IMG/VR virus record: IMGVR_UViG_3300025018_000001
Length of the DNA stretch: 64,000 bases
From: a virus
Taxonomy: Duplodnaviria > Caudoviricetes
Direction: 5' to 3' (one strand)
In this document: piece after piece, positions 5,055-39,936 of the stretch
Layout: every line of letters begins with the position of its first letter
How positions within the stretch are numbered: the first letter of the stretch is position 1
Translations under genes and position numbers: made by a program
The notes under the pieces: generated by a model
Told to the model about the DNA's origin: nothing
Databases searched by the model: none
Seen by the model: only the letters and a program-made list of their open reading frames with translations

Positions 5055-5267
5055 ATGGGTGTTTTGAGTTGTGATAGACCTGGTTGCGATAACATAATGT
5101 GTGATAGGTATTCAGGTAAACATGGTTATTTATGTTGGGAATGTTTTAATGAATTGGTTGCTAAAAAAATACCTGTAAGCGAGTTCATGCGTACAATAAG
5201 AGCAGAAGAAGATGAGAATCCTTATACTGAAGAATTTTATAATGAAATTTTTCCAATACGAAATTAA
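5055..5267 (+). CDS. Cys-rich hypothetical protein
   Basis: ATG at 5055 (track start overlaps the tRNA); CDRPGC..CD..CWEC. Confidence 0.6.
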   Translation: MGVLSCDRPGCDNIMCDRYSGKHGYLCWECFNELVAKKIPVSEFMRTIRAEEDENPYTEEFYNEIFPIRN

Positions 5268-5270
5268 TTA

Positions 5271-5356
5271 CTGGGTGTAGCTCAGTCCGGTAGAGTACGT
5301 GCCTTGGACGCACGGAGTCGTTGGTTCGAATCCTACCTTAGGAGCAATATACCCAT
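5271..5356 (+). pseudogene. tRNA-Pro(TGG)-like element with displaced 3' acceptor strand
   Basis: D arm, anticodon arm CGTGC-CTTGGAC-GCACG and T loop present; acceptor partner TACCCAT lies 13 nt after the T arm. Confidence 0.6.
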
Positions 5357-5398
5357 AACAATAATAACAATAAGTGTATTTAAACAACAGGAGTTACC

Positions 5399-5995
5399 AT
5401 GTTTAGAATTGGTTTGGAGTTAGAAGAATTTTGTGTCAATGGAGAAAAAGAAGTTATCTTAATACCGAAAGAGTCAAATATACCACATGATGGTTGTGGC
5501 TGGCTCATCGAATACAGAAGTGATGCAAGTAAAGATATTGTTGATGCCGTGTTTAGTTTACGTGCACATGAGTATAAAACAATTGAAACGCTAAAGAAAT
5601 TTAATGTATCCGGCGCTAGAATACCTGTAATGAAACCAAATAAAACTGTACGTATGGCTGCAAGAAAACGGTTCATTAAAGGCCTTGTACAATTTAACAA
5701 CATTTATGGTCATCAGTGTCATAAGAATACTCTAGCTGAAGCAGTTGCTGCTATACATATTTCTGTAACCTTTAGTGTTGAAGGTAAACATGGTAGTATA
5801 AATAAAGTATGGGACTTTCCTGATTTTATACGTCATATGGATAAAAAATTTGCTGAAGAGATATCAGCTGCGAAAAGACGTCCAGGTTTTTATGAAATTA
5901 AAAGTGACGGTAGAGTAGAGTATAGATCTTTACCAAATAATGTTGATTTAACAAAACTGATGTATGAAGTAAATGCATATAAGTTTAAATATTAA
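5399..5995 (+). CDS. putative amidoligase / glutamine-synthetase-fold (COOH-NH2 ligase-like) protein
   Basis: IGLELE..DG.G.LIEYRS..HIS..R.PG.YE.K..G.VEYRSL pattern. Confidence 0.55.
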   Translation: MFRIGLELEEFCVNGEKEVILIPKESNIPHDGCGWLIEYRSDASKDIVDAVFSLRAHEYKTIETLKKFNVSGARIPVMKPNKTVRMAARKRFIKGLVQFNNIYGHQCHKNTLAEAVAAIHISVTFSVEGKHGSINKVWDFPDFIRHMDKKFAEEISAAKRRPGFYEIKSDGRVEYRSLPNNVDLTKLMYEVNAYKFKY

Positions 5996-6004
5996 AAGTT
6001 GTAA

Positions 6005-6139
6005 TGCTATTTAGTGTAACGGCAAGCATGCTAAAATCTCCTTATCTGTTAGTTCCCTTACGTAAAAGTAAGTGGTGTAAGATATGGTTACTTCATATCA
6101 TAAATGAGAAGACTGGTTCGACTCCAGAAATAGCTACCA
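6005..6139 (+). ncRNA. tRNA-Met(CAT)-like RNA with inserted Y-like module (element A)
   Basis: acceptor GCTATT/AATAGC + encoded CCA, D arm, T arm; ~60-nt insert 5' of TTCAT-ATCATAA-ATGAG. Confidence 0.75.
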
Positions 6140-13802: not shown

Positions 13803-15170
13803 TTGATGCAAGGGAGAAACAACATGAAAAGAAGAAGCTTAGTATTTAAAACGGATTCCTATAAATCAAGTCACTGGTTACAGTTCCCTGAGAATAGAGG
13901 AAGTTACTACTACATAGAATCACGTGGTGGTGCAGAAGAAGTACTCTTCTTTGGTCTACAAGCAGTCATCAAAAGAATACTTTCAAAAATGCCTACAAAG
14001 AAAGAAGTTAAAAAAGCTGCTAAATTCTGGGCAAACCACGGAGTTGCTTTCAATAAGAAAGGTTGGATGAAACTTGTTAAACTTGGTTATTATCCGATTG
14101 AAATTCACGCTGTGGAAGAAGGTAAATTAATAAAAACAAAAGAAGTACAAGTAACAATTGAGTCTACTGATGACCGATTTGGTTGGCTTCCTGGTTGGAT
14201 TGAGACGACGTTGCTCCAGCTATGGTATCCTACTACAGTTGCGACGAAGCAATTCGAGTGTAAGAAAGTTATACTTGAGTACTTAAAGAAAACTGGTACC
14301 CCTGAAGATGCACCATTCAAACTACACTCATTTGGTTATAGAGGTGTTAGTTCTGAGGAGTCTGCTGGCATAGGTGGATCTGCTGAGTTACTTACATCCA
14401 TGGGTACTGACACTGTTGCTGGTATACTTGAAGCACAAGACATGTACAATACTAACGCTATGCTTGGCTTTAGTATAAATGCAGCGGAACACAGTACTAT
14501 TACTGCCTGGGGAAGAGAGTTTGAGCGTGATGCATACGAGAATATGCTCAATCAATTTCTTAAGCCTGGGGCTATTGTAGCAGTTGTGTCTGATAGCTAT
14601 GACCTAAGTAATGCTGTACTGAAGTATTGGGGTGGTGAGTTTAAAGAACGTATAATTCAATCAGGTGGTACATTGGTAGTGCGGCCTGATTCCGGTGAGC
14701 CATCTGAGATAGTACTTAGAACTCTTGAACAACTTGGCGAATGCTTTGGTACTGAAGTAAATGCTAAAGGATATAAAGTTCTTCCAAGTTACGTAAGAGT
14801 GATCCAAGGCGATGGCCTTAATGGTGCTGACGATATACGTAAAGTATTAGAAGTTATAACAGAGGCCGGTTGGTCCGCTGACAACGTAGCATTTGGTATG
14901 GGTGGTGGATCATTACAACAAGTCAACCGTGACACCTACAAATATGCTATGAAGATGTCTGCCATTTTCAAAAAGAACAAGGATGGCCAATTTGCTTGGT
15001 CTGATGTATTTAAAGAACCTGCTGATGCACCGTGGAAAAATAGTAAGAAAGGTAGATTTGATAAATTAAATCTACCACTTATTTGGAAAGATGGTAAGTT
15101 TTTTAAACAGTACACATTTGAAGAAGTGCGTGCTAACGCAATGGGTGAGCTTGAACGTAAGACAAGTTAA
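13803..15170 (+). CDS. nadV: nicotinamide phosphoribosyltransferase
   Basis: TDSYK.SH, LWYP.TVAT, LH.FG.RG, AAEHS, VSDSYD, VRPDSG, IQGDG, FGMGG. Confidence 0.95.
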   Translation: MMQGRNNMKRRSLVFKTDSYKSSHWLQFPENRGSYYYIESRGGAEEVLFFGLQAVIKRILSKMPTKKEVKKAAKFWANHGVAFNKKGWMKLVKLGYYPIEIHAVEEGKLIKTKEVQVTIESTDDRFGWLPGWIETTLLQLWYPTTVATKQFECKKVILEYLKKTGTPEDAPFKLHSFGYRGVSSEESAGIGGSAELLTSMGTDTVAGILEAQDMYNTNAMLGFSINAAEHSTITAWGREFERDAYENMLNQFLKPGAIVAVVSDSYDLSNAVLKYWGGEFKERIIQSGGTLVVRPDSGEPSEIVLRTLEQLGECFGTEVNAKGYKVLPSYVRVIQGDGLNGADDIRKVLEVITEAGWSADNVAFGMGGGSLQQVNRDTYKYAMKMSAIFKKNKDGQFAWSDVFKEPADAPWKNSKKGRFDKLNLPLIWKDGKFFKQYTFEEVRANAMGELERKTS

Positions 15171-15526: not shown

Positions 15527-15716
15527 GCGTAGCGGTGGGACTACAGACATAGAAGTAGTAAATCATATTGACTATATTGTTGTTGAGCCAAAAGTTAACC
15601 CTAAAAAGAAAATAAAAACATCTATGTATAAAGAGTCTAAAATAGCCCGTCACACAACAGTTGGTGGAAAGGGTATCGTAGGTAGGATATACAATAAAAA
15701 AGGTAAGAAGCTATGA
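15519..15716 (+). CDS. basic hypothetical protein
   Basis: translationally coupled ORF. Confidence 0.5.
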   Translation: MYKRSGGTTDIEVVNHIDYIVVEPKVNPKKKIKTSMYKESKIARHTTVGGKGIVGRIYNKKGKKL

Positions 15717-16162
15717 TGCAGACATTAAATTGTGATATACTACACGGCTTAAAAGCAGACCAAAAAACAGTTATACTGCACGGTTGTAATTGTTTTAATA
15801 CGATGGGTGCAGGTATTGCAAAGTATTTACGTGGTAAATTTCCAAACGTATATGCAGTAGATTGTGCAACAAAGCGTGGCGACAAGAATAAATTAGGCAC
15901 ATGTAGTAGGGCAGTAATAAGTCATAACTTACATATTCTAAATTGTTATACTCAGTACAACTACGGAAGAGAGAAGAAGCTATATGCAAATTATATAGCT
16001 ATTGATGAATGTTTTAAAAGAATTGCTGCTGATTATGACACTACTTGGGAAATACGTATGCCTAGAATAGGTTGTGGCCTTGCCGGTGGTGATTGGGAAG
16101 TAATTGGTGCTTTGGTTGTTAATAATTTTAATAAGCATAACACAAACATATATTTTAAATAG
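15713..16162 (+). CDS. macrodomain protein (ADP-ribose binding/hydrolase)
   Basis: ILHGCNCFNTMGAGIA...MPRIGCGLAGG.W. Confidence 0.9.
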   Translation: MMQTLNCDILHGLKADQKTVILHGCNCFNTMGAGIAKYLRGKFPNVYAVDCATKRGDKNKLGTCSRAVISHNLHILNCYTQYNYGREKKLYANYIAIDECFKRIAADYDTTWEIRMPRIGCGLAGGDWEVIGALVVNNFNKHNTNIYFK

Positions 16163-16170
16163 GACTTAAC

Positions 16171-16983
16171 ATGTTGACAGAAATTAAAAAGAAAGAATTT
16201 GCTAATGGTTGTGTATATCTTTATGAGACTAAAGATAATTACCCCTTAGAAGTTACAGATACATTTTTACCAGCTTATACAAAAGATTCTATAGGTACTC
16301 ATCAAAATTTCCTTAAGGATGGTAACCTTGGTAGTAGAGATGAACGTTGGATGATTGGTGTATCAACTATGTCAGGATGTCCAGTAGGATGTAGATTTTG
16401 CGCAACAGCTAGTATGAAAAGATGTAGGAATCTTAAATCCCCTGAGATAGTAGCGCAAGTAGTTGAAATGGTGGCAAAACAAAAGAAAGAGTTAGTTGAA
16501 GGTTTGGTACTTGGTAAACGTGAAGGAGAGTTTAAAATAAACTACACACGTATGGGCGAACCATTTCTAAATATAGATGAAGTTAAAGCTGCTATTAAAG
16601 CAATTGATACTATACTTGCTGGTACTAAAGTACATCATTACATTTCCACTATTGGTGTAAAAGGCGCCGATTATTCATGGATTAAAGATAATATTACCTT
16701 ACAATTCTCTGTACATTCTTTTAATGAAGAGTACCGTGACTGGTTAATTCCTTTCAAGAACAAAATATCTTTGGAAGAAATGGGAAAGGTCAGGACAGGA
16801 AGTAAACTAAAAACAACTATCAACCTTACTCTAGCTAGAGCACGCGATTTTGATATTGATGCTTTGAAAAAGTATTTTGACCCTGAATATTTTTTTATTA
16901 AGATAAGCCCTATCAATGAAAATGATGTGTCAAAAAGTAATCAAATGGGTAGCGGGATTATTGGTCAGCATAATATAGTTTAA
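16171..16983 (+). CDS. RlmN/Cfr-like radical SAM enzyme lacking the C-terminal ACGQL segment
   Basis: VSTMSGCPVGCRFCAT, RMGEPFLN, ISTIG, SVHS motifs align with RlmN; ends ~25 aa after KISPIN. Confidence 0.8.
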   Translation: MLTEIKKKEFANGCVYLYETKDNYPLEVTDTFLPAYTKDSIGTHQNFLKDGNLGSRDERWMIGVSTMSGCPVGCRFCATASMKRCRNLKSPEIVAQVVEMVAKQKKELVEGLVLGKREGEFKINYTRMGEPFLNIDEVKAAIKAIDTILAGTKVHHYISTIGVKGADYSWIKDNITLQFSVHSFNEEYRDWLIPFKNKISLEEMGKVRTGSKLKTTINLTLARARDFDIDALKKYFDPEYFFIKISPINENDVSKSNQMGSGIIGQHNIV

Positions 16984-16988
16984 TATTA

Positions 16989-17294
16989 TTGGAGGGTACA
17001 TGTATGGCAATAGATCTTAAATCAGAAGTAGCCTTATTAAAAAAGTTAAAGAAAAGATTTTCGAGCAACGACTTATATTTTATGTCAATACAAGACATGT
17101 ATGAGGAGGGCTTGATTACACAAAAAGCTTTTAGATCAATTACTAATTGGTTAGCTAATATAGGTCAACCTAAAACAAGTGTAAGTATAAAAAGTAATGT
17201 AGGTCGAAATAGGGTAATACCTAGAAAAGAAATTGTACAAGAAGTTGACCCATGTAGTCATGGTGGAGGAAGCTTTAGAAATACATCATGTTAA
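16989..17294 (+). CDS. hypothetical protein with Cys/Gly-rich C-terminus
   Basis: ends DPCSHGGGSFRNTSC. Confidence 0.6.
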   Translation: MEGTCMAIDLKSEVALLKKLKKRFSSNDLYFMSIQDMYEEGLITQKAFRSITNWLANIGQPKTSVSIKSNVGRNRVIPRKEIVQEVDPCSHGGGSFRNTSC

Positions 17295-18174
17295 ATACAA
17301 CGTTTACAAATAAGTTACAGTTTAGAAAAAAGAGTTGTAGTTTAAATGAAAAAAATGGTATTGATATACCTCACAATTACGTTAATATTTATGTAAAAAT
17401 TACAAGTAATTGTAATGCTAAATGTAACTTTTGTGTATATCGTAACAAAACACATAATACAAAGGAACAGTTTGACTTTATTAAGTTTGAAAACATGTTA
17501 TTGTTATTAGAAGCAGAAGACATACACATACATAAAGTGTCTTTTACGGGTGGTGAACCTTCAATGTATTGTAATAGGCTTGCAAAATGTTTAAACAGTA
17601 TAGCAAAGTTAAAATACAAACCATTTATTGTAGTAAATTCTAACGGATTTAGACTTAATTTGTTACAGCAATTCAAAGAGATTGACAGTATATCCCTTTC
17701 AAGGCATACACTAACTGACATAAGTAACTGTAGTGTATTTGGTACATTATCTGTTGCAAAAATCGCAGATATGAAACAAAATGTTAGTAACAAGATACAC
17801 TTGACCTGTAATCTAATAAAAGGACGTGTTGACTCAGAAAAAACTATAATTGATTACTTAGAAAAAGCGGCATCTCTTGGTATATATATGATGTTGGTTT
17901 TGTTAGTCTTATGAAGGTAAATGATTTTTGTACTAAACACCACGTAGATTTCAACGATATAGAATTTAAAGATCCATCCATAGTATGTAATAAGGAATGG
18001 ACTTATTCCGATATATGTAGGTGTAAAAATTTTATATACTTACCTGAGGAAGGAACTAAAGTAGTTAAATTTTACTCGCGCTACAGGTGTAGGAATGACG
18101 CAGAAGCTGAGAGTAACTACGTCTTTGATGATGGATACTTAAAAGATAATTTTAGTGGTAAAATAATTTACTGA
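17288..18174 (+). pseudogene. radical SAM protein split by a 2-nt slip in an (AT)n tract
   Basis: CNAKCNFC, SFTGGEP in 17288..17914; removing AT at ~17881-17889 fuses ..LGIY-DVGFVSLMKVND.. to ORF 17911..18174. Confidence 0.7.
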
Positions 18175-18184
18175 GGAGGCTATT

Positions 18185-18382
18185 ATGGCAGAAGAAATAA
18201 GAAGACAAACTACTGATGGTAGGATGGTTACCAAAGAAGAATACATTAAAGAAGTTAAAGAAGCACTTATAAAAATTCAACTAGCTGAAGCTGGTTATGA
18301 CTATGCTATAGCTGTTGCTACGGATGCTGAGGTTAAAGCTGGTGCAGCTTGTGGACAATTAGCTATCATTAATGAGAGTTAA
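18185..18382 (+). CDS. small protein equivalent to the RlmN C-terminal catalytic-Cys segment
   Basis: own GAGGAGG SD; ends LAEAGYDYAIAV...AGAACGQLAII (cf. RlmN DAACGQL). Confidence 0.75.
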   Translation: MAEEIRRQTTDGRMVTKEEYIKEVKEALIKIQLAEAGYDYAIAVATDAEVKAGAACGQLAIINES

Positions 18383-39864: not shown

Positions 39865-39936
39865 TGCCTCCAGAGGGAATCGAACCCCCGTCACACTATT
39901 TTAGAGGTAGTTGTTCCACCATTGAACTATGAAGGC
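39865..39936 (-). tRNA. amber suppressor tRNA (anticodon CTA)
   Basis: GCCTTCA/TGGAGGC acceptor, GTTC/GAAC D stem, loop CT-CTA-AA, GGGGG-TTCGATT-CCCTC T arm; 31:39 mismatch. Confidence 0.8.

Follow-up and report, generated by a model that had tools for sequence, protein, structure and literature searches.

The class A radical S-adenosylmethionine (SAM) methylases are, to our knowledge, represented by just two characterised enzymes, RlmN and Cfr. RlmN is the C2-methyltransferase of A2503 in 23S rRNA and of A37 in tRNA (PDB 3RFA, 4PL1, 5HR7 and 6FZ6), and Cfr is the C8-methyltransferase of A2503 in 23S rRNA (PDB 9P0P), with C105 as its second cysteine. A mechanism built on two cysteines is regarded as defining for the class. 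In RlmN, C355 carries the methyl group and forms a covalent adduct with the RNA, and C118 is needed for the resolution of this adduct, most likely as a general base; replacing it in the C118A variant traps a cross-link between RlmN and tRNA (PMC9692996). Here we describe a locus at positions 16171..18382 of a 64,000-nucleotide stretch of phage DNA (the window; IMG/VR virus record IMGVR_UViG_3300025018_000001, Duplodnaviria; Caudoviricetes) which probably encodes a two-subunit radical SAM enzyme of the RlmN/Cfr type, judging from sequence comparisons and a model of the complex.

The original prediction, made from the letters of the window, had proposed a naturally split RlmN-like enzyme encoded by the open reading frames (ORFs) at 16171..16983 and 18185..18382. 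Both ORFs are where it placed them, and the Shine-Dalgarno sequence GAGGAGG of the second (18173..18179, + strand) can be read 5 nucleotides upstream of the ATG at 18185. The locus holds five ORFs in all, every one of them on the + strand; the description of the first and the last was right, whereas the three ORFs between them, including a second radical SAM module, had been overlooked. The pair of outer genes is a real and widespread variant of the class A radical SAM methylases, and an undescribed one as far as our literature search goes, which turned up no account of an RlmN-like system that is split or phage-borne.

The large subunit and its candidate tail

The product of the large ORF (16171..16983, +; 270 residues), which we call rSAM1, was assigned as the large subunit through its Pfam, NCBIfam, PDB-sequence and Foldseek matches. 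Pfam returns Radical_SAM (PF04055) alone, with an E-value of 6e-10. The top NCBIfam match is RlmN itself (TIGR00048, E 3e-21), with residues 57-204 aligned to positions 102-244 of the 355 in the model, and the next matches are further RlmN and Cfr models; the longest of these alignments, to NF011040, covers residues 57-253 and model positions 94-286 of 338. When a profile of 22 rSAM1 relatives was compared with the PDB sequences, it matched RlmN (1e-16) and Cfr (8e-12) and nothing else, and the MGEP, ISTIG and SVHS motifs of rSAM1 fall inside its alignment to RlmN. The same picture emerged from the AlphaFold2 model (predicted local distance difference test, pLDDT, 81.8), for which Foldseek ranks 1-11 are all RlmN or Cfr structures (E 1.6e-9 to 8e-6), followed by TYW1 at 1e-3. 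Alignment to RlmN also locates the CX3CX2C motif of the radical SAM [4Fe-4S] cluster at 16378..16401 (+), and its residues Cys70, Cys74 and Cys77 are the only cysteines that are invariant in the alignment of the 22 relatives. The scores are well under the family cut-offs, at 75.7 versus 290 bits for TIGR00048 and 41-44 versus 468-550 bits for the Cfr models. Judged from its sequence, rSAM1 is a class A-type (RlmN/Cfr-type) radical SAM core, a relative of RlmN and not its equivalog. The median isoelectric point (pI) of the core, 8.5 versus 8.6 for the canonical enzymes, does not discriminate between substrates.

Two parts of RlmN are missing from rSAM1. The helical domain of about 60 residues at the N-terminus of RlmN is absent, the alignments beginning at model positions 94-102, and the 56 residues that precede the RlmN-matching stretch are modeled as a beta-sheet and a loop. 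A loop at residues 33-58 is conserved and has a low model confidence, and we weighed it as a stand-in for C118; by a noisy count of residues between anchor columns, it is long in the close relatives and in some, not all, of the fused proteins without a C118 equivalent that are described below. At the other end, the polypeptide stops some 50 residues short of the RlmN tail, at about model position 286 of 338, and has no C-terminal cysteine loop, just as the original prediction had read it.

A loop of this kind is found on the product of the last ORF (18185..18382, +), a 65-residue protein which synteny, hhalign and the complex model mark as the candidate small subunit. It comprises a helix, a beta-strand (GYDYAIAVAT) and an AACGQL loop, and it has the C-terminus ..AGAACGQLAIINES with Cys56 (18350..18352) as its sole cysteine. 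The methyl-carrier cysteine loop of the class A type is therefore present in trans only, on the 65-residue product and not on the 270-residue protein. Twelve residues are invariant among 31 aligned peptides, A54-A55-C56-G57-Q58 included, and the 34-codon core of the peptide is under purifying selection, with a median ratio of nonsynonymous to synonymous substitution rates (dN/dS) of 0.11 over 92 pairs. The peptides are acidic, with a median pI of 4.4. In hhalign comparisons with the fused phage homologs, residues 51-256 of rSAM1 fall on residues 32-239 (E 3e-33), and residues 24-65 of the peptide fall on residues 247-290, directly after the stretch taken by rSAM1 (P 0.0024). The resemblance to the RlmN tail goes beyond chance: of the 85 loci that we compared, 82 have this small ORF after the enzyme gene. 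The small protein as a detached RlmN-type C-terminal module with the methyl-carrier cysteine, as originally proposed, is thus a reading supported by colinearity, motif and synteny.

The complex of the two chains was predicted with both alignments, a cluster and SAM, alongside three controls. The pair of rSAM1 and the peptide scored 0.82, versus 0.01 for the best control; in calibration, 58 of the 80 solved complexes attained this mark, as did 2 of the 110 mismatched pairs. Three runs share at least 82% of their contacts, and the pLDDT of the partner is at least 72. In the model, the strand at residues 38-41 of the peptide pairs with the edge strand 241-245 of rSAM1, and peptide residues 54-59 contact the cluster loop 76-79 and Asn249, with Cys56 beside the cluster loop. 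The docking in trans foreseen by the original prediction is supported by this model, at the site taken by the tail in RlmN. It is worth pointing out that such a score speaks for likeness and not for binding of this particular copy, and that it may draw on the RlmN fold itself, because RlmN structures have already been solved.

The conserved split and the missing second cysteine

The 85 loci compared, 80 of which were fetched from IMG/VR, fell into 36 lineages after dereplication at 85% identity, with one locus left unclustered. A same-strand small ORF with the pattern ..G[YF]D[YF]A[VI]A[IV]AT.[AS]E[IV]...AACGQ[LM]... lies downstream of the large ORF in 82 of them. As for the other three, L022 has no CGQL, one locus is incomplete, and one has no small ORF within 4 kb. 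The small ORF was not fused to the large ORF in any of the loci checked, although the two genes are often adjacent, and the suspicion that homologs might always be fused, making the split an artefact, falls away with this result. A tblastn search of GenBank phages with the 65-residue product gave matches only in the phages that carry the closest relatives of the large ORF, namely Kehishuvirus tikkala (crAss-like), Moorella phage MTATph1, Vibrio phage D479, Pectobacterium phages Wc4 and Arno, and Yersinia phage P778. In each of these carriers, the peptide is a separate small ORF, annotated or open, directly downstream of the large one. Among the phages with the split type are crAss-like phages, Ounavirinae, Vibrio phages and Moorella phages. 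The large ORF has 1912 homologs at E <=1e-5, and the best 120 of the 1912 are all 241-288 residues long. The split is real and old and has been kept by selection; it is not an artefact.

Two loci carry the peptide in an unusual form. The small ORF of phage D479 (L002 3303..3584; 93 residues) consists of two tandem copies of the entire module of strand and AACGQM loop. In L009, the peptide with the cysteine loop lies in frame at the C-terminus of the second radical SAM protein (5127..6119), a stop codon having been lost four codons before the peptide ATG.

The second cysteine of the class A mechanism is the other departure from RlmN. In the profile alignment to the RlmN chains, the column of RlmN residue 118 falls on Gly63 of rSAM1 (..miGvs..Gc..; codon at 16357..16359, +), and this glycine is invariant among the 22 aligned close relatives. 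The original prediction had called the site free of cysteine by eye, and the hidden Markov model alignment agrees with it. Across the split-type representatives, the site holds Gly, rarely Asn, His or Ala, and never Cys.

We searched 1.8 billion cluster representatives and classified 86 full-length ones. Cys at the site together with a tail was found in 34 of them. The split type, in which Gly stands at the site and the CGQ tail is missing, accounts for 26; another two, with Asn or Ala, nest among these. In a further 16, the tail is fused (..SNCGQ.. or ..AACGQA..) and the site is taken by a residue other than Cys (I, N, T, M or V). The tree gives the Cys clade a support of 100/99 and the main fused Cys-less clade one of 100/100, and it puts all split-type rows to the same side of a branch supported at 93/91. 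The loss of C118 therefore extends beyond the split form: the fused clade of 16 representatives also has no cysteine there and has kept the cysteine of the tail. Members of this fused clade (P0191, P0193, P0186, P0204 and 12 more representatives) are 294-363 residues long and match no named family; the protein of Bacteroides phage Versailles (L089 1354..2361; tail ..TCGNA..), which stands outside the tree, probably belongs with them. There is also a deeper Gly-type, tail-less subclade of 14 representatives, P0176, P0182 and P0212 among them, with a cellular-looking context and a pyruvate-kinase-like neighbour where genes are listed.

No further conserved cysteine was found in either subunit among the 22 relatives of rSAM1 and the 31 peptides. 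Cys85 of rSAM1 (16423..16425) is lineage-specific, being present in 77 of 102 close homologs; the others mostly have an aromatic residue. Lineages with Cys85 have a peptide without a second cysteine, and many of the lineages with Tyr85 have a second peptide cysteine seven residues after the first (..CGQLAIICE; L026, L030, L013 and L083), counts in which near-identical genomes dominate.

Proposed mechanism and its rivals

In the two-subunit enzyme that we favour, the 270-residue protein would be the catalytic core that holds the [4Fe-4S] cluster and the SAM site, and the 65-residue protein would be the detached C-terminal module whose AACGQL loop brings Cys56 to the cluster loop. By homology with RlmN, one SAM would methylate Cys56, and the 5'-deoxyadenosyl radical made from a second SAM would take a hydrogen from the new methyl group. 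The resulting thiomethylene radical would then add to an sp2 carbon of the substrate, for which an adenine in a nucleic acid is our best guess. The final step cannot take the RlmN route, because the general-base cysteine is a glycine in the whole clade. Two endings may be envisaged. In the first, which we would tentatively put at a little under an even chance, another group releases the methylated product; the general-base role of C118 could in principle pass to another residue. In the second, a serious possibility if a lesser one, the reaction uses up the small protein as a stoichiometric co-substrate.

Several observations weigh against a two-subunit enzyme of this kind. The hhalign probability for the peptide versus the fused homologs is just 12%, and the peptide profile alone did not retrieve RlmN from the PDB sequences at E up to 10; the homology of the peptide is accordingly argued from hhalign colinearity, from its motif and from synteny. 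The peptide of L009 is fused to the second radical SAM protein and not to rSAM1. Both the tandem module of D479 and the presence of a second radical SAM gene between the halves in 13 of the 36 lineages would fit a peptide that is consumed, or that is itself a substrate, at least as well as a fixed subunit.

The small protein might also be a single-use reagent, welded through a Cys-S-CH2- linkage to a nucleic-acid base or to some other host or phage target as a covalent peptide tag made by radical chemistry, with the nested radical SAM modules processing or diversifying the tag. We hold this specific version to be unlikely.

The original prediction went a step further and cast the peptide as a suicide co-substrate that stays Cys-S-CH2- linked to an adenine of tRNA or rRNA, an RNA peptidylation that would protect or disable the RNA. 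Exactly such an adduct is trapped by the C118 mutants of RlmN (PMC9692996), and the features described above are in keeping with it: the Gly at the C118 site throughout the clade, the want of any other conserved cysteine in the two subunits, and the tandem double module of D479. In none of the 82 loci that carry the small ORF has it been joined to rSAM1 again, despite the frequent adjacency, which likewise suggests that a separate dosage matters. A permanent adduct would, however, be suicidal for an enzyme with a fused tail, and the 16 representative clusters of the fused clade have no cysteine at the site either; some other finish of the reaction is therefore favoured, and the idea of a dead end is weakened. 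The role of C118 as a base is also one that another residue might fill. The peptide is acidic, the N-terminal RNA-binding domain of RlmN is missing, and nothing points to RNA as the target. On balance, this reading seems improbable to us.

The peptide might also be the end product, a precursor of a cofactor or of a peptide that is ribosomally synthesized and then modified post-translationally (RiPP), which rSAM1 modifies at or near Cys56 and which the nested radical SAM enzyme, where present, modifies as well. The enzyme would then descend from RlmN and its tail would have turned into its substrate. In favour of such a role, the radical SAM genes between the halves come from two non-orthologous families, the peptide is found at the C-terminus of one of them in L009, and its core is repeated in tandem in D479. 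The survey of inserts tells a different story. Something lies between the halves in 19 of the 36 lineages: a gene of the type found in the window, rSAM2, in 11, a different radical SAM gene with a SAM methyltransferase in 2, and other cargo in 6. The remaining 17 lineages have no insert between rSAM1 and the peptide, nor do any of the five GenBank phages. Moreover, rSAM2 owns a precursor-like ORF of its own, and that pair occurs in megaphages that have neither rSAM1 nor the peptide. The catalytic loops of RlmN and Cfr are near-identical to that of the peptide, and the entire 34-residue peptide core is conserved, where a RiPP would have a conserved leader and a variable core; neither a protease nor an exporter was seen nearby. 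We therefore doubt that the peptide is the product.

The insert in the window deserves a description of its own. It starts with a 96-residue ORF (17004..17294, +) that has a helical N-terminal part and the C-terminus ..DPCSHGGGSFRNTSC (DPC-x10-C); it looks like a RiPP precursor and precedes rSAM2. The ORF has no family match in Pfam or NCBIfam. It has homologs in L007, L009 and L010, and small ORFs ending in C-x8-12-C precede rSAM2 in 10 loci. The members of this precursor-like family have a helical N-terminal part and a Gly/Ser-rich C-terminus ending in Cys, and they always stand directly upstream of a MoaA-like gene. In two megaphages of 630-735 kb, the precursor-like ORF and rSAM2 occur as a pair without rSAM1 or the peptide (L102 3084..3473 and L103 3209..3469), and rSAM2 was not found in the GenBank phages that carry rSAM1 and the peptide. 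For both of these reasons, the segment 17004..18174 looks like an independent RiPP-like module nested in the split, one that appears to be undescribed, and the 96-residue product is likely the substrate of rSAM2 and no part of the split enzyme. The Spearman coefficient for the pairwise identities of rSAM1 and rSAM2, taken as a sign of their co-inheritance, is 0.26 (p 0.08) and decides neither way.

The rSAM2 gene of the window is itself in two pieces. The N-terminal 208 residues (17288..17914, +) resemble MoaA, viperin and SPASM proteins (Pfam PF04055 and Fer4_12), and the C-terminal 87 residues, which are Cys-rich, are encoded at 17911..18174 (+), with an ATGA overlap with the stop codon of the N-terminal part. 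An intact orthologue of 294 residues is found at L007 5085..5969, and the 87-residue ORF is 68% identical to residues 208-294 of this protein. A DNA alignment with L007 places the frameshift at a (TA)4 run (17881..17889, +) with two extra bases. This is not a one-off assembly error, since five other assemblies of the phage (Logan, JGI and ENA) have an identical sequence; for the split rSAM2, a pseudogene, an enzyme in two pieces and a slippage switch are all conceivable. The NCBIfam matches of rSAM2 to MoaA, viperin and peptide maturases are weak, and no named family is reached at cut-off. The AlphaFold2 model of the L007 protein (pLDDT 89.4) has MoaA as its best PDB match (E 2.6e-10). The extra conserved cysteines of rSAM2 are C17, C174, C243 and C245, and there is a C-x-C-x-N-[YF] motif.

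The other type of radical SAM insert is found at L030 4780..5968 and in about 30 similar crAss-like loci, where a 255-residue MoaA-like radical SAM ORF is accompanied by a 148-residue SAM methyltransferase. It is polymorphic, being present or absent among phages whose rSAM1 proteins are at least 85% identical. The insert of L008 holds an endonuclease-like (GIY-YIG/NUMOD-like) ORF.

The locus might be in decay, the remnant of an RlmN-like gene broken by a foreign insertion with neither piece functional. This thought is invited by the frameshifted rSAM2 of the window, the lost CGQL motif of L022 and the endonuclease-like ORF between the halves in L008, and we consider it very improbable given that the split is kept in very distant phages across 36 lineages, that both genes are intact with invariant catalytic motifs and a peptide dN/dS of 0.11, and that the best 120 of the 1912 homologs keep so uniform a length.

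A fusion of the halves by read-through was considered and rejected: rSAM1 and the peptide both end in TAA, and they lie in different frames in relatives. The idea had come from one of the 13 tRNA genes of the window, at 39865..39936, whose anticodon CTA would make it a suppressor that reads TAG; part of the phage may therefore use stop-codon recoding. The neighbours of rSAM1 are genes for NAMPT, a macro domain protein, a DUF7768 protein and two RNA ligases, the first two lying upstream at 13803..15170 and 15713..16162. NAMPT is found within 4 kb of rSAM1 in 8 of the 85 loci, and it also adjoins the fused homolog of Vibrio phage 166E36-1 (L088 1..1307). A macro domain gene lies upstream of rSAM1 in this window and in 4 loci.

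Comparison with known systems

The group to which this locus belongs is a large one: it takes up about 28 of the 86 representatives classified, which are clusters at 50% identity, and has 1912 homologs at E <=1e-5, and it appears to keep the methyl-carrier loop on a detachable peptide while having discarded the second cysteine. If the enzyme turns over, it would offer a new route for resolving the covalent intermediate; if it does not, the adduct of peptide and substrate would represent a modification of a new kind. Both proteins of the pair are small and should be easily expressed, and hosts of these phages can be cultured (Pectobacterium, Yersinia, Bacteroides cellulosilyticus and Moorella), so the question is directly testable.

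RlmN is the best match in both sequence and fold. It shares with the phage pair the CX3CX2C radical SAM core, the MGEP, ISTxG and SxHS motifs, the beta-hairpin that precedes the cluster strand, and the C-terminal arrangement of helix, strand and AACGQL loop with the methyl-carrier cysteine. The phage enzyme differs from RlmN in that its tail is a separate gene product, in the Gly that stands for C118, and in having no N-terminal helical domain of about 60 residues; its score of 75.7 bits versus a cut-off of 290 and its conserved, low-confidence loop 33-58 also set it apart. Cfr shares the class A mechanism and both motifs with the pair, at a greater distance (profile 8e-12, Foldseek 8e-6). The phage enzyme differs from Cfr in the same respects as from RlmN, and nothing suggests a role in antibiotic resistance.

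Fused RlmN-like proteins are also found in phages. Those of Salmonella phage Arash, Stenotrophomonas phage ANB28, Vibrio phage 166E36-1 and Aeromonas phage Ahp1, at 308-319 residues, likewise have no N-terminal domain of the RlmN type. Unlike the split pair, they are single polypeptides that have kept both cysteines (..MC[VI]STQ.GC.. and ..GGGCGQLW..), and they probably carry out ordinary class A methylation. The fused C118-less clade, itself undescribed, shares other features with the split type: it too has no Cys at position 118, has kept the cysteine of the tail, and gives RlmN and Cfr matches that are sub-threshold only. Its tail is fused, however, and it forms a separate clade (100/100).

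Genes in pieces are known from large phages, as in the split nrdA of Aeromonas phage Aeh1 and the topoisomerase gp39/gp60 of T4. As in those cases, an enzyme would be encoded here as two polypeptides that reassemble, with foreign genes at the site of the split, including the endonuclease-like one in L008. Unlike them, the split of the RlmN-like enzyme is ancient and clade-wide, a catalytic residue has been lost along with it, and no more than a catalytic loop module of 40-65 residues is detached.

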